A stretch of 52,991 nt of DNA, counting the filler, from Jimgerdemannia flammicorona (Eukaryota): the NCBI GenBank assembly GCA_003990765.1. It is 2 parts of 2 records of this genome, joined end to end, with 100 filler letters (N's around TTAATTAATTAA, not from the genome) between each part and the next. Parts side by side here need not be neighbours in the genome. Positions count along the whole stretch, not along the records: positions 1 to 26,448 come from RBNJ01000726.1; 1 more part is not named here. One strand, 5' to 3'. Of the stretch, positions 37 through 45,720 are shown piece by piece; the first letter of the stretch is position 1, and every line of letters begins with the position of its first letter. Below the pieces are notes generated by a model. The model made no database searches. It was not told the DNA's origin and saw nothing but the letters and a program-made list of their open reading frames with translations. Both the position numbers and the translations under genes were made by a program.

Positions 37-926
37 CATCGGGGTGAAGGAAGACGCACATTTCATCAGTAGTAAGGATCCCAGTAGGGATGTCGACATC
101 GGCGAGGACCCACTCGGATTTGTATGCTTTCCCTAGGAATTAACATTACAAACCAAAGAATTTTTTTTTTTTTTAAAAAAAAAAAAAACCTCACAATAGT
201 ATAATTTCAAAGCTGGCGTACATGCAAAGAACGGAGAAGCACCATACCTTCAAAGGTCCAATCCGACCTGCCCTTCCTCACCGCCGAATGTACTCCGTCG
301 CACCCCACGATATATTTGGCCTTCACAATCTCCTCCTCCAGGTCACCGTCTGCAGTCATACGCGTCACCGTGGCGACGATCACGTCCTCGAACTCGTCCT
401 CGGTGTATTTGACCAAGGTTGTGCTGCGCTCGACAATCGTCACGTCGCTCCCAGAAGCCTTACGCAAGGATTCCTCTAGGAATTGTTCCGTGTACTTCTG
501 CGAGACGAAGAGGATATAGGGGAACGGCGAATCGGCGCCAAAGGCCGTGAATTCGGCAATCTTCTTTGTGCCGTTGTACATGGCGGCCCGTTTGGGGATG
601 CTGCCTCGAGCGAGGAAGGGTTCCATGAGGTTTCTGGCAGTTGCAAGCGGAAGCCATAACGTTAGGCCATGATGAACAACGATTAGGGACGTAGAAACGA
701 ATCACAGATCATGCGTGAGTATTGTTAGCTACCTGTTATCGAAGGTCTCTAGTGTTCTCGCCACGAATCCCATCGCCTTGGAGTGTATCGATCCAACGTC
801 ATTTTTATCAATGATGCGGAACTTACACCCATAAAGCTGCAGTTCGTTCGCAAGGAGCAGGCCCACCGGCCCGGCTCCGACGACAAGTACGTCAAGGACG
901 TTGTTATCGGATTGTGTTTGAGTCAT
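37..926 (-). CDS. FAD-dependent monooxygenase (FAD_binding_3, phenol hydroxylase/PcpB-like), 5' part; exons 926-733, 633-248, 132-37; runs off window start
   Basis: DVLVVGAGPVGL Rossmann motif and AKYIVGCDGVHSAVR DG motif. GT-AG introns at 732-634 and 247-133 splice in frame (FDNR/NLMEPF, WTFEG/KAYKSEWVLADV); next donor GTAAAT at 36. Confidence 0.92.
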
Positions 927-3320: not shown

Positions 3321-4365
3321 TCTGAACCTACTCATTATATTCAGTACTAAAATCTAAATACTCACCAAACTGAAGAGCAGTATACTGAACTATTTGCAAG
3401 ATGATGTTACTCTATTATTTATTACTCAAATTGGCAATGTTCTCAGGTAATACTCTATAGAGATAGTTGAGGACTTGGAGTCATATATAGAAGAGAACAT
3501 AGAGTCTTTTAGCAACAATATAGATATAGTTGTAAATGAAAAGACAGACTTATTGCTTGGCACTACTGAGAGTAGCTTATTAATAGATAAGACATCCTAT
3601 CTTATAGTACTCCTTTAATTCTTATTAATAGTAGAAGATCTGAAAATATTAGATTCTTCTAAGATATTATTGGGCTTTATTTGGGTCTGGGTTTTTAGAG
3701 ATTTATATATTGACAGAGAGTAGTTTAGTTAAGTCAAAGGAATAACTAAGAACTCAAAATGTCTGTAGCAAGTTTGAAAGATAGTTTTGTAGATATCTTC
3801 TTCTTTTATAGTAATTTACCAGTAGCTATTTCATAAATCAAAAGAGCTCATAAACTATAGATTGGTAGGTCTATTGAATATTTCATCAATTTGGAGTAAG
3901 CAACAGTTCTTGATGATCTGCTCATTGAGATCTTGATAACCAATATATATTTATAGATCTTCTTCTTTCTTGATGATAAAGAGGACTGGTGTACCATATA
4001 GTAATATGCTAGATCTAATGAAATTTTATTCTAGAAGTTCATTGATCTCTTTCTTGAGTATATCAATTTCTTTAGAAGATATATAGTAGATTGACTTGAA
4101 GGCTGACTTAGTATCTAAATGAGTTTGATTATATGGTCAACTGCTTATTTAGATAATAGATCTTTTGAAAGTTTCTTTGGAAATATATCTTGAAATTTCT
4201 GAAGTAAGGGTCTGATATAACTGTCAATTTTAGAAAAGGTTCTCATATCTTCTTTTGGATAGCCTTATAGAGATACATAGCAATATCTTTCTCTAGTAAC
4301 ATTCAGGTTACACAATCTTTTGGTAACACTTTCAACACAGTTTCTGGAGAAAAGCTACTAGTATC

Positions 4366-6396
4366 ATGGTGACCAACGAGCATCCGGAGGTGCATACTGG
4401 GCAGGGTGGCCCTGGAGCATTTGAATGGCAGCAAGTGGGGAGAGGCCCTGGCTTAGGGAGAAGTATGAGGGGCCTGCTGGCAGGAGGCCATGGTGGAGGA
4501 GGGGGAGGAGCTAGAGGTCAAGGGTCTGGCAGGGTGAGCTTTGCGGAGAAGGTGAAGGGGGATTGGCAGGGAGCTAGACTGGAGAGCTGGCTGAGAGGGG
4601 GGAAGGTACCAGTAAAGGCTACCAGGCAGCAACCTCTTGGGAGTTCCTCTCTGGAGGGCCATAGGAGTGGAGCTGGGGGGGTAGCAGCTGGGGCGGGGAC
4701 TGCTGATGGGGGTGTGATAGGTGATCTGGAAAAAAATCTAGATATGACTGCTGATGGTGAGCTGAATGGTGGGAAGGGTATGAGGCCCGGAGACCTGGCA
4801 GATGGTATAATGGGACTGGTGGTGGCTCCGTTACTCAAGAAGTCAATCTTGGCATTCGTGGTCATGCTGTGCTTCTGGGGCTTAGCGGTGATGGCAAAAA
4901 TGGTGTTGGGGCTTATCGCTAAGCAGGTGGCAAGAGCGGCTTCGGTGAAGTTTCTGAAGGGACTGGAGGGGGTGGAGGTGGGTTTTGAGAAGGTTGAACC
5001 ACTGGAGGAGGTACTGAAGGTTGGGTTGGTGGTTGGGGAGGTGTGTGTTCCGATGGTGAGGTGTTTGAAATGGGATCCGAGGGTAGTCCAACTGCTGGTG
5101 AAAGGAGTACTCACGGTGATGGTGATGGAGATGAGGAAGAGAGTGGAGGATGTCATGGCGGAGTATGGAGAGGTGGTGGATATCGGATTCAGGGTCTGGG
5201 AAGGGACCATGCTCAGGACTGGGGATGTGGATGTGAGGATTCGGCTGGCTGGGAAAGAGACTACTGGGAAGATGAGAGACTGGCCTTCAGTGATGGTTTG
5301 GGGAGCATTCCTGTGCAAGGTGATGCAGGTGAAAGGAAGTGAAGAAGAGGAGGAGGATTTATTGGAAGTGCTGGAGGAGCTGGATGGGGCTGTGGAATGG
5401 CGAGCTAAGGCCTGGAAGACTTTCAAGGAGTTGATGCACCTGGAGGTGGTGGATGGAAAGAGGATTCAAGTAGACAAGGTGTAGTGGGAAAGGGCTCAGA
5501 GGCGGAAGAGGCAGAAGGATCTGCTGGCTAAACTGGGGGGTGGACCACAGAAGGATGCGAGCATGAAGATAGGTGCAGAAGGGGCCGAAGCGAGTGTCTG
5601 GGCTGGTGAGAAGAGTGGGAACAATGGGGCAAAGACAGGGAAGGCTAAGGAGGTGAAGATTAGCAACCCATATGCTGATGGCACCTTGGAGGTTTGGGAT
5701 GAAGTCTGGGAGAACTCCCCCACCCCTTCCCCTCTTATCAGGCATGGCCCAGCTTCCAGGAACAAGTCTGGGGAGGACGTGACGATGCTGGGGACCCAGC
5801 AGGTGAAATTCAGCATTCCAGAGGTAATGGATGGAGACCAAGTAGTGGCGGCTGGGGAGGAGGAACTGGTGGATGTCCTGGAGGTGTGGGATGAGGATGC
5901 GAGTGTGGGAGCTGACACCACAATGCTGGATGGAGGGAGGCCGGTAACCCCTGGTGGAAAGGAGGTGGGAAACCTACTTTGGATATGCCAGATGATGAAT
6001 AACCTGGTGGCAGAAGAGCTGGGGGAGGTGAACTTGCGTGGGATGGGTGATGAGCACTGGACAAGAATTTTGCAGAGGGAAGGAGTGGCAATGGCACTGA
6101 AGGTGGAAATTCTCGCAGTGTATCTGGAGGAGGAAGGCTATGAGGTGGACAAGGGGAGGGAGGTAGAGTTGGCAGTTGTTGCTGGGGAGAAGACTGAGTA
6201 CTGTTGGAACAGGCATCATGGGTTGCAGCTTTGGCAGAAGGCTTGCATCAAGTACAGAGAGGAGTTTGAGGAGAAGGCTAATGAGGAGATGAATGAGCTG
6301 TTGGCTGGACTGGAGGCTCAGAGAGCTGAAGAGGAGGAGGTGATGGCTGAACATAATCTGGACATGGCACAGGAGGAGATGGGCATGGAGCAGTAG
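4366..6396 (+). pseudogene. LINE-1 ORF1 (one internal TAG at 5482-5484)
   Basis: ORFs 4366-5484 and 5563-6396 are in the same frame; homologous to ORF1 of LINE-2 and LINE-3 (RTGDVDVRIRL). Confidence 0.85.
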
Positions 6397-6426
6397 AGAT
6401 TGGTTGAGAACAAACTGTATTTCATT

Positions 6427-9400
6427 ATGAACAGTACAACCAACATTTTTTCTTTGAACATGAATGGGCTAAGGGGTGCAGTTAGACACAGGAACATTTT
6501 TATTTGGTTGAAGGGATTGGAGGCCGATCTCTTCCTCTTGCAGGATGTCAGGTGTGAGAAGGACTCTGATAGGATAGAATGGACTAAGGAATGGGATGGT
6601 ATGGCGATTTGGAACAGCAAGGTTGGGATTCTGGTTCAGAAAGGCAGAGGGGAGATAAGGGATGTGAGGAGCTGGGGGGAGAGACTGGTCTGGGGTGAGT
6701 GGATTCGTACAGGTTGGGAGCCAGTCACAGTTGGCTCCTGTTACTGCCCTGCTATATGGGGGGAGCATGTGGATTGGGTGAAAGGGCTCCTGGAGAGTGG
6801 GATCCTTGCTGAAGCTGGGTTAGATATGCTTGGAGGAGATTTCAATATGGTTCGGGATGTATGGCTGGATAGAACTGATGGAGGATGGGGTGCTGAGAGC
6901 AGGAGTGGGGGGCTGGTGATGTGAGAGGAGGTCAAAAGGCTAGGAGCACTGGTGGATGCTGGTAGGGAGTACTGGGGGGATAGGAGGGTATATATGCATT
7001 GGGCTAGAGGTCTGGGGACAAGGATTGACTGGATTCTGACAGCCGACTGTTGGGGCTGCAATGTTTGGAAGATGCTAGAGGTAGAATGGTGTCTGTGGTC
7101 AGATCACTGGAGCCTCTTGGGACAGGGGTGTTTTGGGGGAAGTGGTGATGGGCCTGGACATTGGTGCCTAAATTCCTCCTTGTTGGATGATGAGTTCTGG
7201 TGGGAGGAGTGGGTGAAAGACATTCAGCTGAAGGTGGTGAATTGGTGGCAGGAAGGGGCCATGATTGGGGTTCGGTGGATGAGGATGAAAGAGATGGCCA
7301 GGATATATTGGGGTGAGGCTGGCAGAGTGGCTGGGAAGCAGCAAAGGTGGAGAGTGCATTGGGCTTCTACTAGATTGGCTAGGCTCCTGGAGGAGTGGGC
7401 AAGACTGGCAGTAGTGGAGAGAGAAGAGGATTAGAGAATAATGAGGGTGAAGATGGAGGTTGGGGAACTACAACAGGTGCTGTGGGAAGAGGAAGAGTCA
7501 AGGGTGCAAGACCTGGTGGCACGGCTTCATTGGCAGGGGCTGGAGGAAGGGGAGAGGCCTTCCAAGTTTCTCACAAGGACACTTCGAGTGAGAAGGGTAC
7601 AGCAGCAGTGGGAAGGGATACTTGACTTGGATGGTGTACTAGTGCATGGTGTACAGGACATCCTTGGAATGCTGAAGGTGCAATGGAGTAGATTGTGGAG
7701 TAAGGAGGAGGGTGGGGCAGATGCTACAGCCATTGACCAAACATTAGAAGATTAGCACCCACCACAAGCTGAGGGACTAGATGACCTAGTGATGCCTGTA
7801 AAGGAGGACAAGATCCACCAGGTTCTTACTGCGACAGCCTCAGGTACAGCGCCTGGGGAGGATGGCCTCCCCTGGGACTTCTGGAAGCAAATGGTTGGAG
7901 TCCTGGGTATGTTGGGGGAGTTGACAGCACTGTGTGACTCTATATTGCAGTCAGGGAGATGGGTGGGGGAGCAGGATCTTAGGCTGGTGATGCTGCTTTA
8001 TAAGAACAAGAGAAGGCGAGAGGATTGGAAGAACTGGCAGCTGATAATGTTGCTAGATATGGACAGAAAGTTGGTGACTAAGGTGGTGGTCACAAGGCTA
8101 CAGAAGATAGCCCAGCAAATTGTGGGTGTTGAGCAGAGGGGCTTCATAGGGGGTCGGCTTATTAGAGATAGCATGGCCTGGGTACATGGAGTTATTGAAG
8201 GTGCTCGAGCCTGTAGACTGGATGGGCATCTTGTCTTCTTGGACCAAGAGAAGGCTTATGACCAGGTGCAGTGGGTCTGGCTGGCGAAAGTATTAGATAG
8301 AATTGGGGTTCTGGTCCCATTTTGGTCAGTGATAGTCAGCCTACTGGAAAGGAGTAGGGCTGCACTCGTGTGTAATGGGCATAGAGGGGTAGCATTCCCT
8401 CTGGGTAGGGGAGTGCCCCAGGGGGACCCACTGTCCCCCATTTTGTATGCTCTTTTCTTGGAACCTCTAATGGACAGAATTCGGCAGAGGATAGTGGGGC
8501 TCTCTATCTATGGAGTTGGCTGGAAGGTTGGAGCTTTTGCAGATGACATGGTGGTTGGTTTGGGAGTGACTGTGGATGTCGAGGAGCTCAAGAAGACAGT
8601 GGAGTGGTATGAGGAGAACTCTGGGGTGAAGCTGAATTGGCACAAGTGCAAAACAATGGTGCTGGGCAATGGTCTGGTGGGCAGAGAAGTTATTGGAACA
8701 ATTGTTCCAACTGGAGAGGCAGTGCGGTACTTGGGCATCTATTTGTTGGTCTATGGGTCTGTTTTGCCCAGGCTGTGGTGGGAGCAGAGGATTGGAATTT
8801 GAGAGGAGGACCTGTGGGGTTGGGGAGGAAGACACTTCTTGCTAGCAGGAAGGATCTCAATTTTGAATGTATACTGGCTGCTGAAGCTGTGGTATTTGGC
8901 TTATCATCTGGACTTCCCAGCCTGGGTGGTGAAGAGATTGGTGAAGGTGGCTAAGGGATGGATTTGGGCTGGCAGATGGAGTCAGATTGGTTGGGAGACT
9001 TTGTCCCTACTGGTGGCGAGAGGTGGTCTTGGGCTGATGGACTTCCCCAAAAGACTACACTGCTTGAGGGCATGGTGGCTGAGGAGGGCGGTGGAGTTGA
9101 GTGGAGGGGGCTGGGTTCCCCTGCTGCAGAAGGTTTGGGAGAGGTGGACATCACTGAGAGGCTTGACTGGTGATCTTCTTTCATTAGTTGGGCTTCAGAA
9201 TACTGTGCAACTGAGATATAAAGGCTTCTGGTGGGGGATAGCTGAGGGGGCACACCACATTGGTATTCGCTGGTGAGGGGATGAGGGGGAGAGGGCTTGG
9301 GGCCCAGCAATGTGGAGATGGGATGGCATTCTTCTGGGAGGCATGCCTTTACTTGAGTTCAACATTAGTGATAGCATCGAATACCAAAGGGGACCAGGCC

Positions 9401-10083
9401 AGGATCTGTGGCCTAGTGGTTGGCAAGGAGTTAGAATTGGTGAGGAGTGGGACTGGCATGGGGTTTGGACCTGGAGTGCTACAGTGAAAAATTGGATGCC
9501 ACCGAAGTACTGGGTAGTCTGGTAGCATGTGCTGAGGAGGAATGTGATGCTTAACTTCCACTCAGGATACCTTGTTGTAGAGAGCTGCTTTGACTATGAG
9601 GAGTGCCATAATGTAGGGCAGGAAGGGAGATTTGTACAGACACCAGAACATTGGCTAGGGGAGTGTGAGATGTTGGAAGACTTTTGGTGGGCCATTGGGG
9701 ACTGCTTGGGGGTAAGGCGTAGGGGTGATGATGTACGGGAGAGGTGGGAGGACCTGAGGAATCGATTGATAGGAGGGGTAGGGGAGGAGTGGATTACTCT
9801 AGACTGGGCATTGGCTATTTGGGTTGGGCTGGCTGGTTACTGGCTATTTGTATTTGAGGAAGAGAGGTGATAGAGCTTGGGGAGCCAGTTATCATGGTGG
9901 CAGTGCCTTATGGAGGATACCTTGACAGGCTGGTGGCTTGGTTGGGGGCTGCAGGGAGGTCAGAGGCACCACTTGATGGTGAAAATCTATGGTCAGAGTG
10001 GTGGGAGAGTTGGGATTATTGGTGAGAGAGTGGTCTTTGTATGTGAAGAGGTGGGGAGGGGCCCCCCAATGGGGATCAGATAG
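6427..10083 (+). pseudogene. LINE-1 ORF2: AP endonuclease, reverse transcriptase, C-terminal Cys/His region; disrupted
   Basis: SLNMNGLR, GGDFN, RIDWI, SDH (APE); APGEDG, LDQEKAYD, GVPQGDPLSP, FADD, VRYLG (RT); C..C...TPEHWLGEC. Several stops and frameshifts. Confidence 0.93.
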
Positions 10084-10150
10084 TGGGTAGTGATATTGAT
10101 ATTGTATACTTATTCATAGACTGGTAATAAAGACGGAGTCCAAGGGACTA

Positions 10151-10181
<31 letters not shown>

Positions 10182-10846
10182 TACATAGTAAAGAGAGGAT
10201 ACTTCTTTGCTAATTTCTTAAGTTGTAGTTTATTGATATGGATGATCTTTGAGCCTAAGTCACTGGAGCTCTTTTACCTTATAGTTTGAAATTATAGTAT
10301 CCTTTTTTAATGATTAGAGAATTGTTTATCCAATCAATTATAGAGTTCTCTTATTTTAACTATGATGTTCTAAGAATGATCTCATTATCAGAAAGTAGTA
10401 TAATTTGGAGAGTAATATATATATAGTAGTTACTAATTCTGAAGAATAGGTTGCAAACTTCCTTACAAATGACATATGAGATTCTATCAGCAGTAGTAAC
10501 TACTTGGATTTGTTGTACTGAAAAGATCAGAACTTTAAGTCTATTGGCTGTTTCTTTATTAATGAAATTGTCTGAGGCTCTATTGTCTATCATAATCTTA
10601 ACAGAAGCTTGATTGATAAAAGCTTATAGTATCTGATCCAATAGTGGTAATTTTAGTTGTTAAAGACTTTCTTCTATTAACTCTTCATTGAGCTAACTTA
10701 TTGACATATGAAAAGTAATCATTGATTAATTGGAAAGAATATATTCTAATACTATAGAGATATCAGCCACTTGGTACAAATCTATCTTCAATTTTTCTGT
10801 AAAATTATCCCTCTTTATTTATAGTAGATTGAGCAAGGGCCTTATT

Positions 10847-11258
10847 TGATGAGCTAAATCCCTTAGATCCTCAGATGGTAGATAGTAGTTCAGGAACTTC
10901 CTTAACTGTTAGAGTTAATTTGATTTTCTCAAATAAGATCTGGATAATATACATAGTAACTGATAAGGATCTTGAATAGTATCCAACTATAGTTTTGGAT
11001 GAGAATAATAATTTTACCTATATAATCTTCATCAATGACTCTTTTTTCTACTGAGAGTTCTTTTAATATTAAACTGCTACAATAGTATATTCTTTTAATA
11101 TATCCTTCTGGAATTTGAATACTAATTCTTATATAGATTTACTTGACTTCTCAGTTAAAAACTGTAGCTTTTTTAGCTATATATAGATTATATCTAGCTA
11201 CTTTTTGGCTTTCTTTGATTGGGGCCATAGCTATTATTCTTAACTTAATAAAGTCTAA
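10847..11258 (-). pseudogene. dut: dUTPase pseudogene in gypsy A, between zinc knuckle and protease
   Basis: Manual translation through stops and one frameshift: VARYNLY (AAGYDLY), IQIPEGY..CSSL (RSSL), RVIDEDYIGKI (GVIDxDYxGEI), IIQILFEKI (IAQ), *GSKGFSSS (RGxxGFGSS). All five motifs in order. Confidence 0.88.
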
Positions 11259-14200
11259 TATCTTGATAGTCAGATTGTTAAAGTAGTACAGAGTGATGAT
11301 AGTTACTTATAATATTATTCAGAGTTTTTAGTTAGAGCAAGTACTGGTCATATATTCTGTCTTTCAGCAATAGAAGTATACTTGACTTCTTTGGAGTTTA
11401 TTTCTTTCTCTTTCAGTAAGTTTCTTAAAGATACTCAGCTAGGTGGATTCAGAATTTTGAGATGTCTAAGAGGTAGATGTAAAGAGAGCTTAGGATACTT
11501 CATACTTAGATCTCTCTTTCTTGATTTAAGATTTTTTCCTTATTATTAAATTGTTTTTGAGGCAGAATTGGTCCAGCTATTAGGATTTGCTTAACTATAG
11601 TCTGGATTCTGGCCAGGAACTTTTGTTGGTAATCATAACCAACTGAGTATTCTTGTTCTTAGATCTTTCTTGTGAGCCATTCTAGTAGTATATCAAATAA
11701 ATAGTCTGCTCTTATACTATTTCATACTTTATCATTGATAATATATCCTAGGCCAATAGTATTTAGAAGTGACTCAAGTTTTGTATAAAAAGTTTCAAAT
11801 TTCTCTTTACTATATATATCAAATTTGAGATTATAGAGTTTCACTTGAGATTTGGCAATTAGAGTTTTATTATAATATTGAGCAATCATGAGTTGTTTGA
11901 GTCCAGAGGCCACAGAGTGGTCTCTATATCCAGGAATATTATTTGCTGTATTTTGGACAACAACTATAGATCAGATGTTTCATGTGAGGGGTTTCTCAAG
12001 AAGAATTCACTACTATTCTTCAGTAGGTCCTCAGAAAAATACATATAACAACTTAGTGGACATATGCTGTAGTAGTAGCAAAGAGCTGTTCAATAGTATA
12101 GTCTTGGTTATTTATTAGGAGGTAGTTAGTAACTCACTTATTGGTCTATTTATTGGCTTTAAAATTGGTATCTATTATACTAATAAAGCTTTAAACTTCT
12201 TGTATAGTACTATTAAAGATAGATAGACTCAGGCTTTTTGTTAGTCAGGTCTATTTGGCTAAGACAGTAATAGTTATTATCATTATGGCTATTTGGACTA
12301 TAAGGTTTAAGATTTGTTAGTTTGTTATATTGTTTATAGAAGGTAATTATACTACTAATAATGAGATTACTGATATGACTTTAGATACTAGTGTAGAGTG
12401 TGATGATGTTCTTTGAGTCTATATGAGTTGCTGAAATAACTGTTGTGGATCTGATATAAGGGCTTAATAGATAACTATCTATTGTTCTGTAGATATATTT
12501 TGTTCTGAGGTAGATGTATTATCTTCAGTAGTATATCTGAAATTAAACTCAGTAAAAATACTTCTTCTTTTCTTTACTTTGTCTTTATATAGCTGGGTTT
12601 ATTTAGTATCAAAGTAAATAATATCTATTGTATACCAGATTTCAGATGAGCTTAAATCAAAAGCTAGTTCTGGTTCAACTTTGGGTTCAGATAGAGTTCT
12701 AGCTAGATCTGCTTCTGGCTCAGAGTTTGGTTATTGATGAAGGATTTCTCTAGCTTCTTCTTTAAGAATATAACAGGTCTTACAATTCTAAAAATAATAA
12801 TATAGAGCAGTCTTGGTCCTAGTATAGTAATAGTTAGTAGAGTTGAGCCACTTGACTATAGAGACTTGTGTTTCATGAAAAACTAAGGCTAAGAAGATAG
12901 CTGCTAGTTGTTCTAGATCACCTAGATTTATAAAGCTTATAAAACTCTTATTGAGAAGAGTAAAGAAGACTTCTATATATAAGACCTTCTTTATCTTAAC
13001 TTATAGAGTATAGAGCAAAGAGTTCAGTGAATAGAGTTTTATCTATTTGTTGATTTAATTAGAATACTTCTTTATATATATAAAGCTTGTCCTACTTATT
13101 GTAAGTATAGAAGTCTAATTATCCTTATATATCAGATTTAATTTACTCCAGATTGTTAGATAGTTCAGAATAAATTTCAGTTCAATAGTTGGGCTTTACA
13201 CCAACTTGTAGGAATTTCTATAGAAGGTTATAGCTGAGTAAGGAAGCATCTTGAAGCAGAATTAGATTGTGAACTACTACTACTAAATTGTAAGAGGATA
13301 CTTTCTTAGAGTACTGTTACATAGTTCTAAGAGAGTTTTTTTTTTTGGAAATTCTAGATATTCTGAAAGACTGTTTTCTTAGGATTAAGATTAATTTTAT
13401 ATAGAGTATATTCTCTATACTTATTAATTTCAAGATTGGATTGATATTTCAACCAAATTCCTTTTTTTTTAGACTTGTTCTAGGTGTTTAGGATTTTCCT
13501 TATTTTAGAAAGTTTAAGAAACTAAGACCAGCTTAATTGAATTAGTATATTGTTGTAGATAATAACTAATTTGAAAATTTTAGAATCTAGTTAGATCTAA
13601 TATAGTGTGAGTTTACCTAAGAGTAGTTTGTAGATTATTAAATAAATTTATTTACTATTTATAATATTACTATTAACTAATACTAAGAGTAGTATATAAA
13701 GGAATATTTATATAGAGAAGTGTTCTTGTCTATTTATATCTATTCAGATCTATATTTCTGAGATCTGGGGGATGAGAATATTTATACTAATGGGAGGTTA
13801 TCTGGACTATATTAAATATAGGTATAGTACTTTAGTATTTAATGAGTCAGAATATAGTCATATAGTATAATATGAACTGATATATTAAGAGATCAACTGA
13901 CCACTAAGTCAGTATACTGTTATATAATATAAGGCTAATCTAACTATACTAATGATTGTTAAACTATTTATAGGTTTAGATACTATCTGGATATTCTTCA
14001 ATAAGATTACTATCAATAATATTATCTCTGATAAAGTAATCATCTAAGAAGAGTGATTCTTGGATAATGTCTTCTTATTTATTTATATAATAGTATATTA
14101 GAACTATATTACTATCCTACAAGATAACATCATCTGTCTCATATACTGAGTATAGTGTTGGTGGACAGAAGGGGTGTATCATCTTTACTTTCATCAGATT

Positions 14201-14873
14201 TACTATTAGTATATCTTTAGTAAATTATAGTACTATATGTTGTAGAGTTATAGTAAACTGATGGCTGTTCTTCATTTTGCTTGTACTTGAGAGATAGAGT
14301 TGTTGATTCTATCTTAAAAGTAGTTTGGAGATATAGGTTATCTTCTCTGATCTCTTTATTATAGTTGAAGTAGTTAGATATAAATATAGATTAATACTCA
14401 TATCAGTGGTCATTATCTCAATAGATCTTATAAATAGTTATGAACTATTGTAAGTTCATCATCAAGATTGACAGAGTGATCAGGGTTAGCAGAGATTCTT
14501 GGCTAGAGGTCATATCAGTATCAGAGGAATTATTGTCTTCTACTTTATTATTATTGAACTAGATTATATTATAGATATCTTTTATGATATATCTAACTTA
14601 GGATATTTGTATAATATATGTGAGAAGGATCTGTCTGTAGTTTAGATATACTTGATATATTTTTGGTTGAGTTCTTATACTATGTCATCAATTTGGCCAT
14701 AAATCAGAGTGGTAACTATTTCAGTAGTAGTAACTCAGAGATAGGAAATAAAGGTGCTGTACTTATAAAAGAGTTCTCAGTATTTATGAGCAATGAGTTT
14801 CTGGTATTGAGATATTTTAGTAATATCTGTATTATAGTAATAGTTAATCATATCTTCTAAGAGGTGGCTAATC

Positions 14874-15297
14874 TAGTGCTCCCAATGAATCAAATCAAAT
14901 CAAATTTGGCCCAAACTCGATTCGATTCGATCGAATCAAGGGTCCAATTCAATTTGATTCGAATCAAATCAAAGGTCCAATTTGATTCGAAGTTTGATTT
15001 AAACCTTAATTTTCAAAATGTAATAACTCGATGAAAACTCGTCCAAATTTAACGTATTTTAGCTTGTTAGATTCACCATATTAATGTGATTCTAACAAGC
15101 TAAAGTATGTTAGATTTGGATGAGTTTACGCTGAGTTATTGCATTTTGAAAATTAGGGTTCAAATCAGACCCTCAATTTGATTCGACTTTTGATTCGATT
15201 CAAATTGATTTGAATTGAAAAATCCTCAATTTGATTTGACTCATTTAACCCTCAATTCAATTCAATTCAAATTGATTTGACTCGTTTGGGAGCACTA
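14874..15297. mobile_element. hAT-type non-autonomous DNA transposon (MITE), 424 bp
   Basis: TIR TAGTGCTCCCAA / TTGGGAGCACTA; perfect 8-bp TSD GGCTAATC at 14866-14873 and 15298-15305; subterminal AATC(G/A)/TTCGA pentamer arrays. Confidence 0.93.
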
Positions 15298-15719
15298 GGC
15301 TAATCTGATAGTAGCTTGAGGTTTGCCTAATTTAGTGAGCCTTACTAAGTATATTTAGAGTATTCTATAAGATTTCTACAAAATAGAGGGGTGCTAAACT
15401 ATAGATATTTATAAGAGATAGGGGTGCTGTAGCTTAGTTGATAATGATATTCTAAATATCAATATAGATGTAGTTGTAGACTTTGGTGGTCATGTCTAGA
15501 TATATTTGAGAGTTATAGTTATGATTTTTTACTCTTTATTTTGACATACTATATATTCAGTATATATTTTCAGTTCTGATTAGTAAGGTTTCATTTTCAT
15601 ATATCTTATATTCTGTAACTTTGAGTTGACTTAGCTTTATGATCTTATATGTAATTTCTAAATTTACTCTAAGGGTAATATGTGATTACAGTAACTTAGA
15701 GGTTATACATTTATATCAG

Positions 15720-18124
15720 CTTAGAGTTGAGATCTTGGATTTTGTTTCTCTCTTTCTTCCACTTCTTGACTGGCTTTTTTTCTTCTATTTTTCCATGTTC
15801 TTGAAGAAGTCTTTGTAGGGTTTTGACCAAAAGATCTTCCTTATCATCTCTCTTATCATAATTACTTTAGGTGATTTCTTATCTGATATCAAAAAATCCT
15901 TAAGCTATATTCAGACTTTCTGATGCCTAGAGTATAGACATACTGGGCAATATTTGGGAGAATTCTATTTATGAAAGTTATTGGACCTATAATGTCTTAG
16001 TTGATAACATTAAACCCAGCTATATATATTCTTTTCTAGATTCTGATAAAGAATACTCTGGGTAATTCTCTAAGATTTATCTTCATTCTCATAATAGATT
16101 CTTAGGCCTTATAGCAGATATTATTTTCTGTATATTCTTTAATAAACCAGTAGATCATGGCCTCATATTCTACTTTTCAGAATAGTACTATATAAATGAC
16201 TATTCTAAAGTCTAAATATGTATCACTTACTATTTGATTGAAGATTCTCTTTGCTAGTTCTCTGAGTTGGATCTTATAGATAACAACTTTTCTCTGGATA
16301 GAAAGATTCTTTAGAGCTGTAATTTCTTTAATTTCATCAAGGAATTCTCTTGGATTTTCTTCTGAGTATTCTGTAAAGGTGAGTATTGAGATAGTCATTT
16401 TGTTATTACTGTCTTCTGGTTCTGATTTTGATTTTGATTTGAATTCTGGTTCTGATTTACTTTCCAATTCTAATTCTGATTTACTTTTTGAGTTGTTACT
16501 AAAGTGTAAAATACTTGAGTATTCTGAAGATAGTATTATTGATCTCAAGCAAGATATAGTGAGTCTAGATATTCTTGAAGAGACTACTTCTAGTCCTTCT
16601 AATTCAGTAGTTACTGGTCCTGGTAATGGTTTAATGGGGAAGATTGGCAAAGCTTCTGAGAGAAATAAAAATTATGCAATGAGGTCTTCTAACTCTTATA
16701 CAAGCTTGTTGAAGTTTCTAATAGAGCTATTAGTATTATCTAGTTGATCTGATTGAGACAAGTCTTCTGGATTAATACTGGTTGAGAATTCTATACTGTA
16801 CTGGCTTTAGGTTGAGATTCTTCCAATACTGGATAGTTGGTAAGTCTTGAGATAATCTCTTCTCTTCTTTTCTAAATACTAGTTCTTCTATAGTAGTAGA
16901 GATTAGTATTATATCAAATATATCCAACTAGACTATAGGTTCTTGTGAGCTAAAAAGTTACATAGATTTTAAAGAAAATCTTTCCAGTTGAGCCCCCAAA
17001 TATAATATATCTAACTCAATAGAGGTAAATTACAAGATTGGAGGTTTGTGTAGTTTGGCTTGAGCCCCTAGTTACTTTGTCAAAAAGCAACAAAATGTTC
17101 AATGATTTCTGGTATTCTTATTAGTATTTAGTGATATAATAATCAAATCCGAATACAGTGATCAATTCAGACAGATTTCCTTATTGAGATAGTTCTTAAG
17201 TATAGTGATAATTTGTATGATAGTCTCAGTAAGTGGGTCTCCTTATATGATTTCTGTATAATAATTATATTTTCAAAAATATATAATTTCTGTATAATGA
17301 TCTCTGTATAATGTAATAATCTTCAAAAGTATAAATTTCTGACATAATGATCTTAGTATAATATGATAAATTTAATAGTATTTCTTATTAAGTAGTAGAT
17401 TGGCAGATAACTTAGTTTTGGTATAGATTCTTCTAAATTGACAGGCTTCTTAAGAATAGCTCAGATAACTTAGATAATGAATAACTTGATAACTCAGATA
17501 GTGGATTCTTAGGCAAAGTTATGTCAAAGACTAGTTTCATTTATATGAATATGAGTTTATTATAAAGTTGCATCTAATAGACTAACTTTGTATTGAGAAT
17601 ACAGGTGGACTTCTCTTGAAAATAGTGGCTTTTTCTTAAGTAGCAGATTACTTAAATAGTAGTAAAGTTCTTCACTTAAACTTAGGCAGATTTCTCAGAC
17701 TTTATATCAGAAAGTAGACTAGAGTGAAAAAGAAAGCTCACAACTTCTTAGCAGTGACTCATTGGTAGGTTTCTCCTCTTAAGTATATCAGACAATTAGC
17801 TTTTGCTTTTTGATTTTCAGACTGAGATTTATTCACTCTTGTCTCTAAGATATTTTATATAAGTTGGTTACTATCTGGTTACTATATAGCTAACTATAGA
17901 TTGCTATTTCTGGTAATATTTAGCTATTCCTATTGGGAACATAAATCTCAAATTCTAGTATAGTGTACCTGCTGGGAATACTTTGTGCCCTTATTTGGTT
18001 ATCTAGGTTATTTATATAAGTTAGCATAGTAGGGCAGTCCTGGTTGCCTAGTATACTTGATATGGTAAGTATATGGCTAAATTAGTAACTAATTTGGAGT
18101 ATGTTTTTCTCCTAGCTTGTCACA
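15720..18124 (-). mobile_element. Truncated gypsy B (5' LTR 18124-17001, PBS, gag 5' part), older relative of gypsy G3
   Basis: LTR end matches 41400-41490; PBS TGGGGGCTCAACTGG at 16998-16984; ORF 16177-16650 (EENPREFLDEIKEI) aligns to G3 gag (EEDPREFLDGIEGI). Visible homology ends near 15720. Confidence 0.88.
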
Positions 18125-18233: not shown

Positions 18234-21200
18234 ACCTTTCACCAGTAACATTCAGGTGATACAAGACTCAGGCAACACTTTCAACAATGTTTTGGTGAAA
18301 GGCGACTAGCAATATGGAATGCAATGAACATGCAGGTGTGCATACTAGGTCAGGTGGACCTAGGGCCTTCGACTGGCAGCAGGTGGGGAGGGGTTATGGC
18401 CTGGGGATGGGGGCCTTCGAGGGGCCAAAGAGTGGAGAAGGCTCTGGAAGGGGACCAGTATCTAGTGGCAATGGGGGAAGATCTGGTCTCCCAAGCTTCA
18501 CAGATAAGGTTAAGGAGAGTGGGTGGCTGGCTGGTACTAGGGCGAGGGAGGGTGGTGCTTTGGCTGGGAGTGCAGGCATAGAGGCTGGAGGTGCTGTGGC
18601 TGGGGGTGTGACTGTTGATGAGAGTGTGATGGGGAATCAGGAAAAAAAAAGAGATATAATAGCTGATGGCCAGGTGGGGCAGGGGTTCCCGATGTGGAAG
18701 GGGGACCTGGCAGATGGTGTGACAGGACTGGCGGTGACCCCATTACTCAAGAAGTTGATCTTAGAGTTTGCAGTAACCTTGTGCTTCTGGAGCTTGGCAG
18801 TGACGGCAAGAATGGTTCTGGGGCTTGTTTCGAACCAGATGGCTAGAGTGGTCTTGGTGAAGTTCTTGAAGAGTCTGGAGGGGGTCAAGGTGGGCTTTGA
18901 GGAGGCAGGCCCACTGAATGAGGCACTGAAGACTAGAGTCATGGTTGGGGAGGTAGTGGTCTCTATGGTGTAGTGTCTGCAATGGGATCCCAGGGTGGTG
19001 TAGCTTCTGGTGAAGGGGGTACCCATGGTGACTAAGGAGGAGACTAGGAAGAGGGTGGAGGAGGTGATGATTGAGTATGGTGATATGGTGGATATTGGCT
19101 TTCAGGTGTGGGAGAGGAAAATGATCAGGACAGATGACATTGATGTCAGGATTCAGCTGGCAGACAAGGAGGCCATGGGGAAGGCAAGTGACTGGTCTTC
19201 TGTGCTGATGTGGGGGGCTTTTATCTGTAAGGTTTCGAGGGTGAAGGGGAGTGAGAAGGAGGAGGAGGACTTGTTGGAGGTGCTAGAGGAGATGAGTGGA
19301 GCTGTGGAGAGGAGGGCAAGGGCCTGGAAGATGTATGAGGAGTCAATGCATCTAGAGGTTATGGATGGGAAATGCACCCATACTGACAGGAAGCAGTGGG
19401 AGTAGGCACAGGGATACAGGAGACAGAGAGAGCTACTTGCAAGTATGAGAGTAGAGATGAAGCAGAAGGCAGTGAGAGCTGAAGGGCCTGGGGGTATCAA
19501 AGCCAGTGTTTGGGCAAGTAAAGGGGTTGGGGAGGTGGAGGTAGATAAGAAAGAGGCTGAAAAGGTGCTGAGCAAGAACCTCTTTACCGACAGCACTTTC
19601 GAGGTCTGGGAGCCAGAGCTGGATGCAACCCCCCCTCTTATTAGGAGGGGCCTGGCTGAAATGAGATAGACAACAGAGGATATGCCAATGAAGGGGGCCC
19701 AGTGGATGTACTTTGGGGTCCCTGATGTGGAAAAAGGGGGTCAGGTAGTGGCGGTTGGTGAGGATGAGCTAGTGGATGTCCCTGAGGAGGAGTGAGATGA
19801 GACTGCCAGTGTAGGGGCTGATACCACGATGTTGGATGTCAGACAGCTGGGGACTCCAGGAGAGAAGGAGGTGGGGAACTTGCTGTGGATGAGCAAGGTA
19901 ATGGATAACCTAGTGGCTGAGACTTTGGGGGAAGTGGACCTATGGATAATGCCTGAGGAGTATTGGGCTCAGATTTTGCATGGTGAGGGTGTGGTGGAGG
20001 CACTGAAGGGGGGGATTCTTTCGATTTTCCTGGAGGAGGAGGAATATGAGGTTGATGAGGTGAGGAGGGCTGAGCTGGTAGTGGTCGCTGGTGAGCAGGC
20101 AGCATACTGTTGGGCAGAGTGGCATGGTTTGTGGTTCTGGCAGGAGGCATGTCAGGAATATCATGAGGACTTTGAGGAGTGAGAAGATGGGGTGATAGTA
20201 GAACTTCTGGGAGGGTTAGAGGTACAGGAAGCTGGTGAGCAGGAACTAACTGCTGATCATGACTTAGATTTGTTGCAGGAGGAGCAGGATGCAGAATTGT
20301 AGAGGGTGGGTTCATGATACAACATTTTTCTCTTATGAACAGTACAACCAACATTTTCTCTTTGAATGTGAATGGGCTAAGGGGATTGGGGTGGCATAAG
20401 AACATTTTTAATTAGCTCAAGGGATTGGAGGCTGATCTTTTTCTACTGCAAGATGTCCAGTGTGAGGATGAGGATGATTGGGTTGAGTGGACTAGAGAAT
20501 GGGGTGGGGCTGTTGCTTGGTTTGGAAAAGTGGCGATTCTGGTGAGAAAGGGTCAAGGAGATTTGAGGGATATTGAGAGCTGGGGTAATTGCTTGGTCTG
20601 GAGAGATTGGCATTGGCTGGGGTGGGAGTCAGTGAGAGTTGACTCTTGCTACTGTCCTGTGGTTAGAGGTGAGAGAATTGCATGGATTAAGGAGCTGCTG
20701 GAGGGGGGTATTCTCTTGGAGGAAGGGGTTGATGTGCTTGGGGGGAACTTTAATATAGTTCGGGATTAGCATCTGGACTGAACTGATGGTAGGCAGAGTA
20801 CAGGAGGGAGAAGTGGAGGCCTGGATGCATGAGAGGAGGTGGAGCAGCTGAGCTCCTTAGGGGATATGGGCAGAATGTGATGGGGCAACTCCAGGGTCTA
20901 CACATATTGGGTGAATGGCTTAGGTACAAGGATTGACTGGATTCTGACAGCAGAATGCTGGGGGTCTGATGTCTGGAAGGCTTTGGAGGTGGAATGGTGC
21001 CCATGGTCTGATCACTGGGGACTGTTGGGTCAGGGGCAGTTTGGGGAGAGTGGAGATGGACCCAGACATTGGCACCTTAACTCCTCCCTGCTGGCTGAGA
21101 TGAGGTTGTAGGATTCATGGGTAGAGGACATTCAGGCAAAAGTTTCTTGCTGGAGGTGTGAGGGTTTGTCAGTGTCCATTGGATGAGATTGAAAGAGGCT

Positions 21201-24056
21201 GCGAGGGTCTATTGGGGAGGGGCTGGGAGAGAAGCGGGGAGATGGAGGAGGAAACAGATGAGGTGTGCTTCCAATAGGCTGAGGAGATTGCATATGGATT
21301 GGGCTGGTTTGCTCACTTCTGATGGGGTGGAGGATTGGAGGTTAGCACAGGTTAGATTGGAGATAATGGAACTGCAACAGATGTTGAGAGAAGAGGAGAA
21401 GGTGTATGTGTAAAGTATGGCTGCTAGGCTAAGGTGGCAGGGGCTTGAGGAGGGTGAGCAGCCTACTAGGTATTTGTCCCATAAGCTCAAAGCTAGGAGG
21501 GTGAGACATCAGTGGGATGGAGTCCTGGATACTGATGGGGACATGGTACATGGCATGCAACAAATCTTAGGGGTTTTGAAAGAGAGATGGCAGGGTTTGT
21601 GGAGTGAGGAAGAAGGGAGTACTGATGGGGTGGCTATTGAGGATACATTAGGGGAATAGAGGCCACTGCAAGTGGCTGGACTGAATGACTTGACCTTGCT
21701 GGTATGAGGTGAGGAGGTCCAGAGTATCCTTGTGGCAACTAAAACTGGAATAGCACCAGGGGAGAATGGACTACTATGGGACTTCTGGAAGAAGATGGTT
21801 AAGGTCCCCAGCATTTTGGGTGAGATGACTGCTCTCTGTGATCATGTTCTTCAGAGTAGTGAGTGGGTTGGAGAGCAGGACCTCAGGCTGGTGGCTTTAT
21901 TGTACAAAGACAAGGGGAGGAGAGAAGACTAGATGAACTGGTGGCCAATCATACTTTTGGACATAGACAGGAAGATGGTAACTAAGGTGGTTGTTGCAAG
22001 GCTGCAGAAGGTTACCCAACAGGTACTGGGGGAGGAGCAGTGGGGCTTTGTTGGAGACAGACTTATAAGAGATGGGACTGCATGAGTGCATGGTGTCATT
22101 GAAGGGGCCCAGGCTTGTGGACTAGATAGAAGGTTGGTCTTCTTGGACCAGGAGAAGGCCTATGACCAGGTCTGGCAGGTTTGGCTGGGCAAGGTACTAG
22201 ATTGTATTGGTGTTCCTCCAGGATTTCAGGCTTCTATGTTGAATCTGCTAAAAGGCAGTCAGGTGGCACTGATGTGTAATAGTCACCATGGTCTGGCATT
22301 TATCTTGAAAAGAGGGGTTCCTTAGAGGGACCCCCTGTCCTCTATTCTTTATGCCCTTGCATTGGAACTGTTAATGGATAGGATTCACCAGAAGGTGGAA
22401 GGGCTTTCTATCTATGGCATAGTGTGGAAGGTGGGAGCATTTGTGGATGATATAGTGGTTGGCCTTGGGTCTGTGGCAGATGTCGAGGCACTTAAGAAGA
22501 TGGTGAAATGATATGAGAATCACTCTGGGGTAAAGTTCAACTGCATAAGTGTGAGACTATGGTACTAGGGAATGGGCTGGTGAGTGGGGACATCATTGGA
22601 ACAATTGTCCCTACTGGTGAGGTGGTATGGTATCTGGGCATCTTCCTCTCTATATATGGTTCTGTCCTGCTGCAAGTGTGGTGGGAGAGCAGAGTGGCTG
22701 CTTGGGGGGAGGCCCTTTGAGGTTAGAGAGGCCACCATATCTCTCTAGCAGGGTGGGTAGCAATTCTGAATACATACTGGTTCCCCAAGCTGTGGTATGT
22801 GGCCTACCACCTAGACTTCCCAGCTTGGGTGGTAAAGAGGCTGACAAAGGTGGCTAGGGATTGGATTTGGGCAGGAAGGAGGTCCCAGATCAGTTGGGAT
22901 ACTCTTGCGACACTGGTGGTCAGGGGAGGTCTTGGTCTTGTGGATTTCCCTAAGAGGTTATACTGCTTACAAGCCTGGTGGTTGAGGAGAGCAGCTGAAC
23001 TGCAAGGAGGGGGTTGGGTACCTCTGCTGCAGAAGGTGTAGGAGATGAGAACATCCCCCTGAGGGTCCTCAGGAGATCTACTCTCTTTGGTGGGGCTCAA
23101 TGGAATTTAGAGGCTGAGGTTTAAGGGCTTTTGGTGGGGAGTGGTCGATGGAGTGCACAGAATTGGTCTGTACTGGCAAGGCAATAAGGAAGAGGTGTTG
23201 TGGGGACCTAGTATGTGGTGATGGGATAGACTACTACTGGGGGGTACTCTACTTGCTGCTTTTAATATAAGGGATGGAGTGGAGTGTCAGCAGGGTCTTG
23301 GCCAGAATCTTTGGCCAAGTGGTTGGCAGGCAGTTGGGATCAGTGAGGAGTGGGACTGGGCAGGTGTCTGGTCTTGGAGTGCTGAGGTATGGTAGTGGCT
23401 TCTCACCAAGTTTTGGGTGGTATGGTGGTGAATGCTGCAGAGGAATGTCATGCTGAATTTCTACACCGGGCATCTGGTGGATGGTGACTGCTTCGACTGT
23501 GAGGAATGTTACAATGTAGGGCAGGCTGGGGGTTTGGTGCAGATGCCAGAACATTGGTTGGAAGAGTGTGAGGTTTTGGGGACTTTTGGGTTGAAATAGG
23601 GGATAGGCTGGGGGTGGGGTGCCAGCTGGTGGGTGAGGGGGATCGCTGGGAGGACTTGAGGTGTCAGCTAGTGGGGGGGGTGGGTGATAGTTGGCTCACT
23701 GTTGGGTGGGTGTTAGCAGTTTGGGTGGGATTGGTGGGACATTGGCTATTTGTGTTTGAGGAGAGGTGGCAGGTGGGCCTGCAGGAGAAGGTTTTAAGGT
23801 GGGAGGAGCTGTTGGGAGATCTGTTAACTAGATGGTGGATAGGTTGGGGTCCTTCAGGGGGGTGACAGTGAGGTTTGGTGACAAGGATATGCGAGCAGAG
23901 TGGTGGGAGGGTGGGAATTGTATTCGATAGAGTGGTGTTTCATTGAGAAGGGATAGGGGGGAGGGGCCCCCCTAGGGGGATTGGATAGGGGGTGGGTTCA
24001 CTGTACTTATATGGGATAGATGGGTGTAATAAAGGAAGAGTCCAAGAAAAAAAAAA
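18234..24056 (+). mobile_element. LINE-2: full-length, more decayed copy of the same LINE family (ORF1 ~18314-20301, ORF2 ~20335-23950)
   Basis: Collinear with LINE-1; AATAAA and poly(A); perfect 16-bp TSD ATCAATGTGGTCTACC at 18218-18233 and 24057-24072. Confidence 0.95.
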
Positions 24057-28789: not shown

Positions 28790-30209
28790 ATTGACGATCA
28801 TGGAACTCTGCTTGTGTATTTGCCATAAAATGACAGATTCTTTACCAATGTAAAAGAGATATCTGGTCATAGACTGGCAGTTATCTAAGTCTTTAGCCCA
28901 GTCAGTATTACAAGTATCAGATTGTTGGATACTATTACTCTTACTTAATTCAATATCACTATTAAATGTGAGTATATAGTATACTGATCTCTTTAAGTAT
29001 CTAAATATTCTCTTAATTGCTGTTCAGTGTGAGTTGTCATAGTATGAGCAATACTGCATCATCTTATTTATAGCATATGATATATCAGGTCTCATTTCTA
29101 GTATAAGATATATAAGAGAATCAATCACTTGTTTGTAGAGAATATTATTGGCAGCATTCTTGACAGGTGTATTATTATTATCTATCTTAAGTATATTGTT
29201 GGGCTTCCTTAGTTTTATAGAGTTTTATAGAAGTCTCAATTGAAGTACTAATGGGCTTACAATCACTCATATTAAAGCATTCAAGAATTGTTTAACTTAT
29301 AAGAGATATATGGTGTGTACATTCTTGTTATATATAATGGATATCTCCAAAAAGAAGAATATATTACTCATATTGGTTATCTTGAATTCTCAGCATAGAG
29401 TTCTCTTTATTCTGTTAAGCCTATTCTTACTAGCTACAATGATGATATTATCAACCCATATGCTGATATATACTATACTATTATTATAACACTAAATATA
29501 TATAGAATTGTCTGCTTTATAATGCTTGAATCTATTATCAAAGAGATGTTTATCAATCTTTTTATTCCATAGACATACTGCTTGCTTGATGCTATATAAT
29601 TCTTTACATAATCTATATATGAGATTGCCATTCTGATTATTATATAGTTTATATCCTTGTGGTTTATAAATATTATAATGTAGCAGACACTTACTCTTGA
29701 AAGTATATCAGATTTCTGTATCTTAAATACTCAGTCTTCTCTGACTCCTTGGAGTCCTTGGGATGTAGGGATGGATGAGTTCGAAGTGTATCTGCCTGCA
29801 GGCTTACTAGTTCCTTTGCTATCTCTTTACTTTTGAACTATTTCGATCTGAGGTTTATTCACTCTAAGATACTGGGTTATTTATACAAGTTTTGCTAACT
29901 ATAAGGTGGCTAAGTAATGGCTCATTTTACAAGTATTGAATATTTTAATATCTGCTAAGATTTTGCTGATCACGAAGATTTTAACATCTCCTAAATCTTT
30001 GCAAATGTTAAAGTTTCTGCACTTTGTGGAATATGGCTGCTATTTTGATGAGGCTAAGCTATATTGGGAATCGGATTCAGATACTGCCATCAAATGTCTA
30101 ATTCCCCTGTTTCATGTTACTAATTCAGATCAGCTGTCATATCTTCCTCCTGAATAGATGATTCATCTCAGGAGTATCCTATTCACTTGAATTCCCAGGC
30201 TTCTATGAT

Positions 30210-41492: not shown

Positions 41493-41509
41493 TGAGGGCT
41501 CAACTGGGA
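41493..41509 (+). promoter_or_regulatory. Primer binding site, probably tRNA-Pro
   Basis: TGAGGGCTCAACTGGGA here and TGGGGGCTCAACTGG in copy B; resembles the tRNA-Pro PBS TGGGGGCTCGTCCGGGAT. Confidence 0.7.
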
Positions 41510-44515: not shown

Positions 44516-45319
44516 CAATGACCCTTGGAATACAAAAGAAGAACCCAGTACAATCACCATTATTCCCAAGAAAGAAACTCACCAAGAAAAGGCTTTCTGA
44601 CTAGGAAGATGTCCACATCAAATGGTCTTCCACTCTCCCCGAGACTACTGCTATCAGTATCATCTGTTGGACCAACAAGAAAGACAGAGACCCCAGAGAC
44701 CAGAACCCCCAACTACTCTTGCACAGTCAACCACTTTTCAAGAAGTTACCACAAGGTTACAAAGTTGATTTAGAGGATAAGGCTTCTTTACCCAGACAGA
44801 AATATATCCCTTGTCTACTCTTCCACCCACCTATGATCAAGATGGGTACCAATTCCCAAGACAACAAGAGATCAACAGCCAGGAAAACCATTTCTGAGCA
44901 ATGGGATATTGTAATCATGGAAGACACCCTGATTGCCGAGACTGCAGATATCAGAAGATTCACCTCAGTCATGATGTTGCAGTGCACACCTTGAAGAAAG
45001 GAGATAACTGGAGCTGGATCCAAAAAAGTCAGATTCGAAAAAGCCAGACCAAGAAGCCTGGAAAAAGAATTCTCAAGATCTACGATTTGGGAGAAGACAT
45101 CCTAGCTCTCATCAGACATACAACCCACCAAGGATGGGCAGAAGATACCACCAACTTCATGGAAGCCCTTGACCCTATAGAAAGGAGGGGAATCAATTAC
45201 CTCTGAGACTCCTCTACTGGAGCCAGATGGCCACACCTCAACCTTAGAGCTTGGAGGCTTTCTACTAGTGGAGCTTCAGTCTCAGAAAAGCCTGAACTCA
45301 GCAAGGACATTGCCCAGTA

Positions 45320-45720
45320 TGTCCTGCTGCACCCCAAGGCCAAACCCCTGACCAAAGCCCACCCAGAGGATGTAGGATATGATATTCACAGCCTGGAGGA
45401 TGATCTATCAAGCCTGGAAAAACCTTCATAGTCAGAACTGGATTAGCTATGCAGCCATCTCAAGGAGCTTATATTCAACTGACCTCAAGGTCCGAACTTG
45501 CCAGACAAGGAATAACTGTAGAAGGAGGAACCATTGACCCTGGATATACAGGAGAAATCAAGGTTATCCTACACAACAGCAGTGCAGAATGGCACCGAAT
45601 CATTAGAGGACAGAAGATTGCCCAAGTAGTCTTCATGAAGGTCAAGACCCCACAGTTACAGGAAGTCTCTGGACTAACTGAAGGAATAAGACAAGCCAAG
45701 GGATTTGGAAGTTCAGATAG
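45320..45720 (+). pseudogene. dut: dUTPase domain in G3, between PR and RT (one frameshift near 45405)
   Basis: DVGYDI, SRSELA, GGTIDPGYTGEIKV, KIAQ, RQAKGFGSS. Confidence 0.95.

Follow-up and report, generated by a model that had tools for sequence, protein, structure and literature searches.

A Trimeric dUTPase between Nucleocapsid and Protease in a High-Copy Chromovirus Family of Jimgerdemannia flammicorona

Introduction

In the betaretroviruses, including MMTV (p30) and MPMV, the dUTPase is located between the nucleocapsid (NC) and the protease (PR), in the order NC-dUTPase-PR (PMC4531489). Among fungal retroelements, the chromoviruses of Postia placenta, reported in 2010, have the dUTPase at either end of Pol (amino or carboxyl) or between PR and the reverse transcriptase (RT), and independent acquisition has been proposed for them (PMC2864245). 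Further fungal Gypsy elements with a dUTPase named in the same source are PosPlaTy3-4 and -5 and those of Phanerochaete chrysosporium and Tuber melanosporum (Tmt1). The bdelloid rotifer LTR retrotransposons Juno, Vesta, and TelKA carry the dUTPase between PR and RT (PMC5408684), and a parallel with betaretroviruses has been remarked on in the papers that describe dUTPase-bearing elements of rotifers and planarians (PMC5408684, PMC6431247, PMC2774666). The main text of an article on LTR retrotransposons in fungi does not contain the term "dUTP" (PMC3248453). Our literature search, which did not reach the subscription originals on Phanerochaete and Tmt1, returned no paper on such elements in Endogonales.

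Here, we describe a gypsy element of Jimgerdemannia flammicorona, element A, and its family. The window is the whole stretch of DNA that was analyzed, 52,991 nucleotides (filler included) joined from two records of assembly GCA_003990765.1. PosPlaTy3-3 is, like family A, a fungal Gypsy element whose Pol starts with a dUTPase, and Postia placenta, like the present genome, has several dUTPase positions in one genome (PMC2864245). The novelty of the NC-dUTPase-PR layout implied by the original prediction is not supported, since both the position and independent acquisition have been published for Postia. Compared with PosPlaTy3-3, which we know by its description, family A differs in its Endogonales (Mucoromycota) host, in having Gag and Pol in one frame, and in a cysteine/histidine module that follows the dUTPase.

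The Element A Locus

The features of element A, together with the dUTPases of two other gypsy families in the window (G2 and G3), are given in Table 1.

Table 1. Coordinates of element A and of the other dUTPase domains in the window.
Feature	Position	Strand	Basis or remark
Element A 5' LTR	13289..15715	-	Junction sequences; BLAST match with L064 (natural copy, 3' LTR)
Element A primer-binding site, decayed	~13288-13270		Next to the 5' LTR
MITE in element A LTR, presumably hAT-like	14874..15297	.	12-bp terminal repeats, 8-bp target duplication
Element A gag capsid region, frameshifted	11667..12232	-	Matches gag of natural copy L063
Element A CCHC zinc knuckle (nucleocapsid), decayed	11337..11378	-	Two of four ligands kept
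Element A trimeric dUTPase, with stops and frameshift	10843..11258	-	PF00692, 38.4 bits
Cysteine/histidine module, decayed in the window copy	10699..10804	-	CxH-x13-CxxC in less-mutated copies
Element A aspartic protease, decayed	10332..10629	-	Active-site remnant at 10590-10575
LINE inside element A, between PR and RT	4281..10177	+	Poly-A end, 11-bp target duplication
Element A RT, N-terminal part; element cut off here	3716..4121	-	Groups with family A RT
G2 module, then dUTPase	33983-33872, then 33743-33335	-	Between PR and RT; next contig, past the N gap
G3 dUTPase	45290..45719 (start approximate)	+	Between PR and RT

The original prediction placed a dUTPase with all five motifs between the gag knuckle and the protease of element A. 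Reading the minus strand of 10847-11258 with stops as X gives a PF00692 match of 38.4 bits (E = 1.2e-9, model positions 5-85), well over the curated cut-off of 22 bits, while the remaining two frames of this stretch give no dUTPase match in Pfam. Both the domain and its place are confirmed. About two thirds of a trimeric dUTPase, from its start and interrupted by stops, can be read at 11258-10985. Past a frameshift near 10950-10965, the rest of the domain is found in the next frame, up to a motif-5 remnant at ~10843; this part has a local-profile score of 18 bits and 83% identity to family A over 35 residues. Motifs 1, 2, 3, and 5 can be recognized as claimed, but motif 4 is just marginal.

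Element A is a dead, heavily mutated copy that has undergone transition mutation, frameshift, LINE insertion, and truncation. Its 5' LTR of ~2 kb is interrupted by the MITE, which we take to be hAT-like from its 8-bp duplication, and the zinc knuckle retains two of its four ligands. The LINE, which divides element A between PR and RT, has an RVT_1 match of 111 bits at 7756-8799. Neither this insertion nor the cysteine/histidine module at 10804-10699 was part of the original prediction. The remaining RT piece groups with the family A RTs at 100/100 in the RT-RNase H (RT-RH) tree.

Other sequences in the window have also been mapped. A G3-related LTR and gag fragment at 15720-17902 (minus strand), with 76-90% inverted matches to 40426-42765, stops where the element A LTR starts, so element A likely inserted into it. 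Three related LINE copies, at 4281-10177 (plus), 18235-24000 (plus), and 26549-28789 (minus), are 71-80% alike and have a strong GC skew. An additional, decayed gypsy RT-RNase H is found at 50764-51827 (minus), and the sole host-like gene seen is a fragment resembling an FAD-binding monooxygenase at 130-900 (minus; PF01494, 85.6 bits).

Family A Copies and Layout

The nested insertions at this locus (LINE and MITE) leave room for the view that the dUTPase is itself a secondary insertion, or a chance neighbor, in the window copy. A DNA search of the genome with window positions 10400-11700 (40 scored of 1944 candidates) returned 30 loci, 29 of them other copies. All 29 contain the dUTPase, covering the knuckle to the protease at 78-80% with near-constant spacing, and in 17 of them the knuckle, motif 3, motif 5, and the protease markers lie in one frame. 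In a protein search (124 scored of 9834 candidates), every scored match runs from the dUTPase through PR in one frame. With the domain present in all the DNA-matched copies and in frame in the stop-free ones, a secondary insertion has been ruled out, and we give this explanation practically no weight.

A natural frame of 598 residues without stops contains zf-CCHC, dUTPase (117 bits), and aspartic protease domains. NC, dUTPase, and PR share one stop-free frame in copies L046 and L051; in L051 the dUTPase scores 117 bits (PF00692) and the CCHC knuckle 20.3 bits (PF00098), just below the cut-off of 20.8. In L063 the same frame extends into RT, RNase H (RH), integrase (IN), SH3, and a chromodomain (PF00385, 43 bits, plus PF24626). 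LTRs and the PR-RT-RH-IN order are present in family A copies, the window copy ending within RT. The family order is Gag-NC-dUTPase-module-PR-RT-RH-IN-chromodomain. Because the less-mutated copies read from Gag to the chromodomain in one frame, family A is a high-copy, single-ORF chromovirus (Ty3/gypsy) of which the dUTPase is an integral part.

This layout was originally called betaretrovirus-like. The description fits the NC-dUTPase-PR order, and the enzyme is of the same trimeric, five-motif type apart from a motif 4 that lacks its arginine, but the description fits neither the expression strategy nor the lineage. Betaretroviruses are described as making a transframe NC-dUTPase fusion by a gag-pro frameshift in a three-frame genome, whereas family A uses one ORF. 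A gag-pro frameshift of this kind is ruled out by the stop-free NC-dUTPase-PR frame of L046 and L051. In addition, family A has a chromovirus RT and IN, and its NC is likely cut from the dUTPase, judging by eye from junction motifs. It is highly improbable that the layout came by descent from, or exchange with, betaretroviruses. The identical domain order (PMC4531489) would agree with such an origin, but the single frame and the chromovirus pol do not, and in a PDB comparison the family A domain matches yeast and vaccinia entries best (93-94 bits), compared with 60 bits for FIV and 52 for EIAV, while MPMV (entry 3TRL) does not appear in the best 60 of 72 matches. Family A and the betaretroviruses likely came by convergence to a dUTPase placed before PR.

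Across 58 distinct family A copies, 6488 of 7219 differences from the commonest column letter are transitions. C-to-T damage affects both strands and all contexts (CpG 0.38, which is an underestimate, CpA 0.23, CpC 0.16, CpT 0.07). It ranges from 4% to 23% per copy (L013-L080), the window copy being among the worst at 21%. This pattern suggests RIP-like or methylation-driven decay in a Mucoromycota genome.

Other dUTPase-Bearing Families

A Pfam dUTPase search of the genome gave 8265 first-look candidates, of which 150 were scored; these figures are not copy numbers. Families B and C are chromoviruses with the orders NC-dUTPase-PR and NC-dUTPase-module-PR, respectively. The mapped G2 copies have the order PR-module-dUTPase-RT and the mapped G3 copies PR-dUTPase-RT, so that Pfam bears out the predicted place of both enzymes between PR and RT. 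This is also the dUTPase position in Juno, Vesta, and TelKA (PMC5408684), unlike that in family A. A local search found the chromodomain in A, B, and C and in none of the mapped G2 and G3 copies. Copia-type RT pieces (PF07727) on the minus strand at 29500-29700 and 36240-36500 flank G2, which thus appears to have inserted in a copia element.

In every mapped G3 copy (L107, L108, L109, L110, L095), the RT frame is set back by one base relative to that of gag, PR, and dUTPase (window 46020-46150, plus strand). The frame overlap has a G GGA AAY heptamer in three of six distinct copies, which we take to be a slippery-site pattern. A programmed -1 frameshift before RT is likely from these sequences and, if true, would mean that the G3 dUTPase is made at the Gag level. 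In the window copy (45720-46036, plus strand) and in L095, a stretch of about 100 residues after the dUTPase looks by eye like a degenerate second dUTPase-like fold, and several Cys/His clusters lie ahead of the dUTPase.

The best-scoring dUTPase of the genome (L001:1501-1899, minus strand) is an intronless, host-type sequence with 96% identity to a named Jimgerdemannia flammicorona protein, followed by other Mucoromycota enzymes at 66-79%, which points to an Endogonales host. Five conserved motif positions are changed relative to its 96% match, and L001 is therefore probably a damaged copy itself.

In a sequence library, Pfam was run on 36 matches picked from 150. The dUTPase precedes the protease in seven of the 36 and follows it in six, and one lies after a chromodomain and one in a copia-type protein. 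P0251, P0274, P0303, and P0339 are library proteins in which the dUTPase belongs to a copia-type polyprotein, comes behind a chromodomain, or follows SCAN-protease. Ten library matches are metagenomic, with an annotation of at most "dUTP pyrophosphatase". When long polyprotein relatives were sought, 5258 candidates yielded a single weak match.

The dUTPase Domain of Family A

Transition damage aside, family A keeps motifs 1, 3, and 5 and the Arg-Ser of motif 2. Motif 3 is where the catalytic Asp of trimeric dUTPases sits (PMC4531489), and this residue is retained in the family. The predicted model of the domain has a pLDDT of 88, and Foldseek matches it to the vaccinia and human enzymes at E = 1e-13. 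The motif-4 arginine is missing in all 58 copies, while R or K occupies this position in 50 of the 56 comparison rows having motif 4. As a result, dUTPase activity may be low. A literature search on the role of this arginine returned nothing useful.

Selection has been estimated from shared transversions. In the 58 copies, the dUTPase has eight synonymous to five non-synonymous changes against an opportunity of 151:671 (pN/pS 0.14, p = 0.0007), a set in which the copies from the protein search are biased to intact frames. In the 30 DNA-chosen copies, pN/pS is 0.35 (p = 0.1), with 0.015 for PR. By this measure the domain is under purifying selection, less than PR, and the signal is weak in the DNA-chosen set.

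We consider it probable, on the evidence of the motifs, fold, and selection, that the family A dUTPase was an active enzyme. It might instead be a weak or inactive dUTPase with another role (a trimeric scaffold, module carrier, or spacer) or a passenger under relaxed selection. The loss of the motif-4 arginine throughout the family is in line with this view, as is selection weaker than on PR and the module in the DNA-chosen set, and an inactive dUTPase-like domain is described in BIV (PMC4531489). We nevertheless find it unlikely, given the retained motifs 1, 3, and 5 and motif-2 Arg-Ser, the 117-bit Pfam score, and the overall pN/pS. The element proteins P0220 and P0231 are also without the motif-4 arginine, so its loss may be tolerated.

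For an active enzyme, the following route can be proposed. By analogy with the retroviral dUTPases (PMC4531489), the domain would ride into the particle within the Gag-Pol polyprotein. Four boundaries (NC/dUTPase, module/PR, PR/RT, RH/IN) have hydrophobic motifs that look similar by eye. From these look-alike junctions, the element protease may cut on both sides of the dUTPase and module, which suggests that NC is separated from the dUTPase. The released enzyme would form trimers, as retroviral dUTPases do, and would remove dUTP during reverse transcription, keeping uracil out of the element cDNA. In sum, a dUTPase between NC and PR of a now dead, high-copy, single-frame chromovirus, an old capture that was packaged, cleaved free, and hydrolyzed dUTP, is the reading we hold to with reasonable confidence.

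The Cysteine/Histidine Module

About ten residues past motif 5, the dUTPases of A and C are followed by a module of ~36 residues with the pattern CxH-x13-CxxC. In G2, the order is reversed and the module stands before the dUTPase. With the A module as a query, the modules of C and G2 are retrieved with E-values of 1e-7 to 1e-10, compared with 8.6 at best in a reversed database; G3 has just a weak look-alike (E about 1), and no module was found in family B. The module is present in eight of 347 stored proteins, always after the dUTPase (P0192, P0198, P0202, P0207, P0236, P0343, P0344, and partly P0001). Pfam, searched to an E-value of 1, has no family that matches it, and there was no useful PHROG match and no usable match in Atlas. 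In a fold search with dUTPase plus module, all the listed matches are dUTPases.

In the AlphaFold model of dUTPase plus module, the module is folded (pLDDT 81-93), and its ligand pattern suggests that it binds zinc. Shared transversions point to purifying selection on it (4:1 synonymous, p = 0.0006; 3:1 in the DNA-chosen set, p = 0.0025). In Juno, the dUTPase is followed by an additional zinc knuckle (PMC5408684), which we can compare with the module by description only, and the texts available to us on dUTPase-bearing elements contain no description of the module.

The different order in A and C compared with G2 hints at exchange between lineages. More speculatively, the dUTPase and a zinc-binding module may form a mobile cassette swapped by unrelated gypsy lineages in early-diverging fungi, with the module as a functional partner of the enzyme. 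This tentative proposal, which we hold to be possible rather than probable, draws on the NC-dUTPase-module-PR order in A, C, and environmental relatives, the PR-module-dUTPase-RT order in G2, and the C-type dUTPase on a G2-type RT in G3. Such a module would perhaps make up for the lost motif-4 arginine or tether the enzyme to the element nucleic acid.

Origins of the Element dUTPases

The five element dUTPases are 33-46% identical pairwise, with 36-40% among A, G2, and G3, and 36-43% identical to the host-type copy. They have been placed in a tree of 60 hand-picked rows and 139 columns, in which 18 of 57 branches are open and which has no betaretroviral or Postia sequences; the RT-RH tree has 17 rows and no named chromovirus references. 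The latter unites G2, G3, and a library protein in a starred clade, and it places the A, B, and C RTs together with an unnamed chromodomain protein on an unstarred branch (84/91). In the dUTPase tree, none of the five falls inside the Mucoromycota host group. A starred eukaryote-type group takes in the B enzyme and leaves out those of A, C, G2, and G3. The A enzyme is without a starred sister, and that of G2 has the same library protein for a neighbor in both trees. The dUTPases of C and G3 pair as sisters with support of 98/86, a pair picked after the tree was seen, while a C+G3 grouping of the RTs is rejected (AU p = 0.00016).

The AU test rejects A+G2+G3 as one dUTPase clade (p = 0.019) and A with the Mucoromycota host-type enzymes (p = 0.021), although these two values near 0.02, out of five tests, would be lost under a strict correction. 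It does not reject A+B+C (p = 0.114) or G2+G3+P0315 (p = 0.13) as one dUTPase clade. A recent capture from the host lineage is rejected at the modest level of p = 0.021, and the A dUTPase is likely an old capture of a eukaryote- or large-virus-type enzyme from outside the present host lineage. Its origin is likely separate from that of at least one of the G2 and G3 enzymes, and more than one origin is likely for the element dUTPases as a whole. The expectation of at least two captures or a relocation is supported by the low identities, the rejected A+G2+G3 monophyly, and the separate RT lineages.

One ancestral gypsy capture, moved later across positions and lineages, could account for all five enzymes, and it would fit the module common to A, C, and G2, the C and G3 sister dUTPases on RTs that are not sisters, and the A+B+C clade that is not rejected. 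We regard a single capture as improbable in view of the rejected A+G2+G3 clade, the separate grouping of B, and pairwise identities no higher than to the host-type copy. The pairing of the C and G3 dUTPases against the split of their RTs would suggest domain exchange between C-like and G3-like lineages and replacement of the G3 dUTPase. The replacement is only suggested, since a G2+G3+P0315 clade is not rejected and the C+G3 pair was chosen post hoc.

Concluding Remarks

The layout of family A is already known from other fungi, so the finding changes little in this respect; less ordinary are its unnamed module, which hints that domains were exchanged between lineages, and the missing motif-4 arginine. 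Should the module prove to bind zinc and to be a partner of the dUTPase, it would represent a small new domain family absent from Pfam and PHROGs. This genome, in which five abundant gypsy families place the dUTPase in two positions and some of them share an unnamed module, is a good test bed in which one can ask whether accessory domains are passed between LTR lineages and whether the dUTPase is kept under selection.
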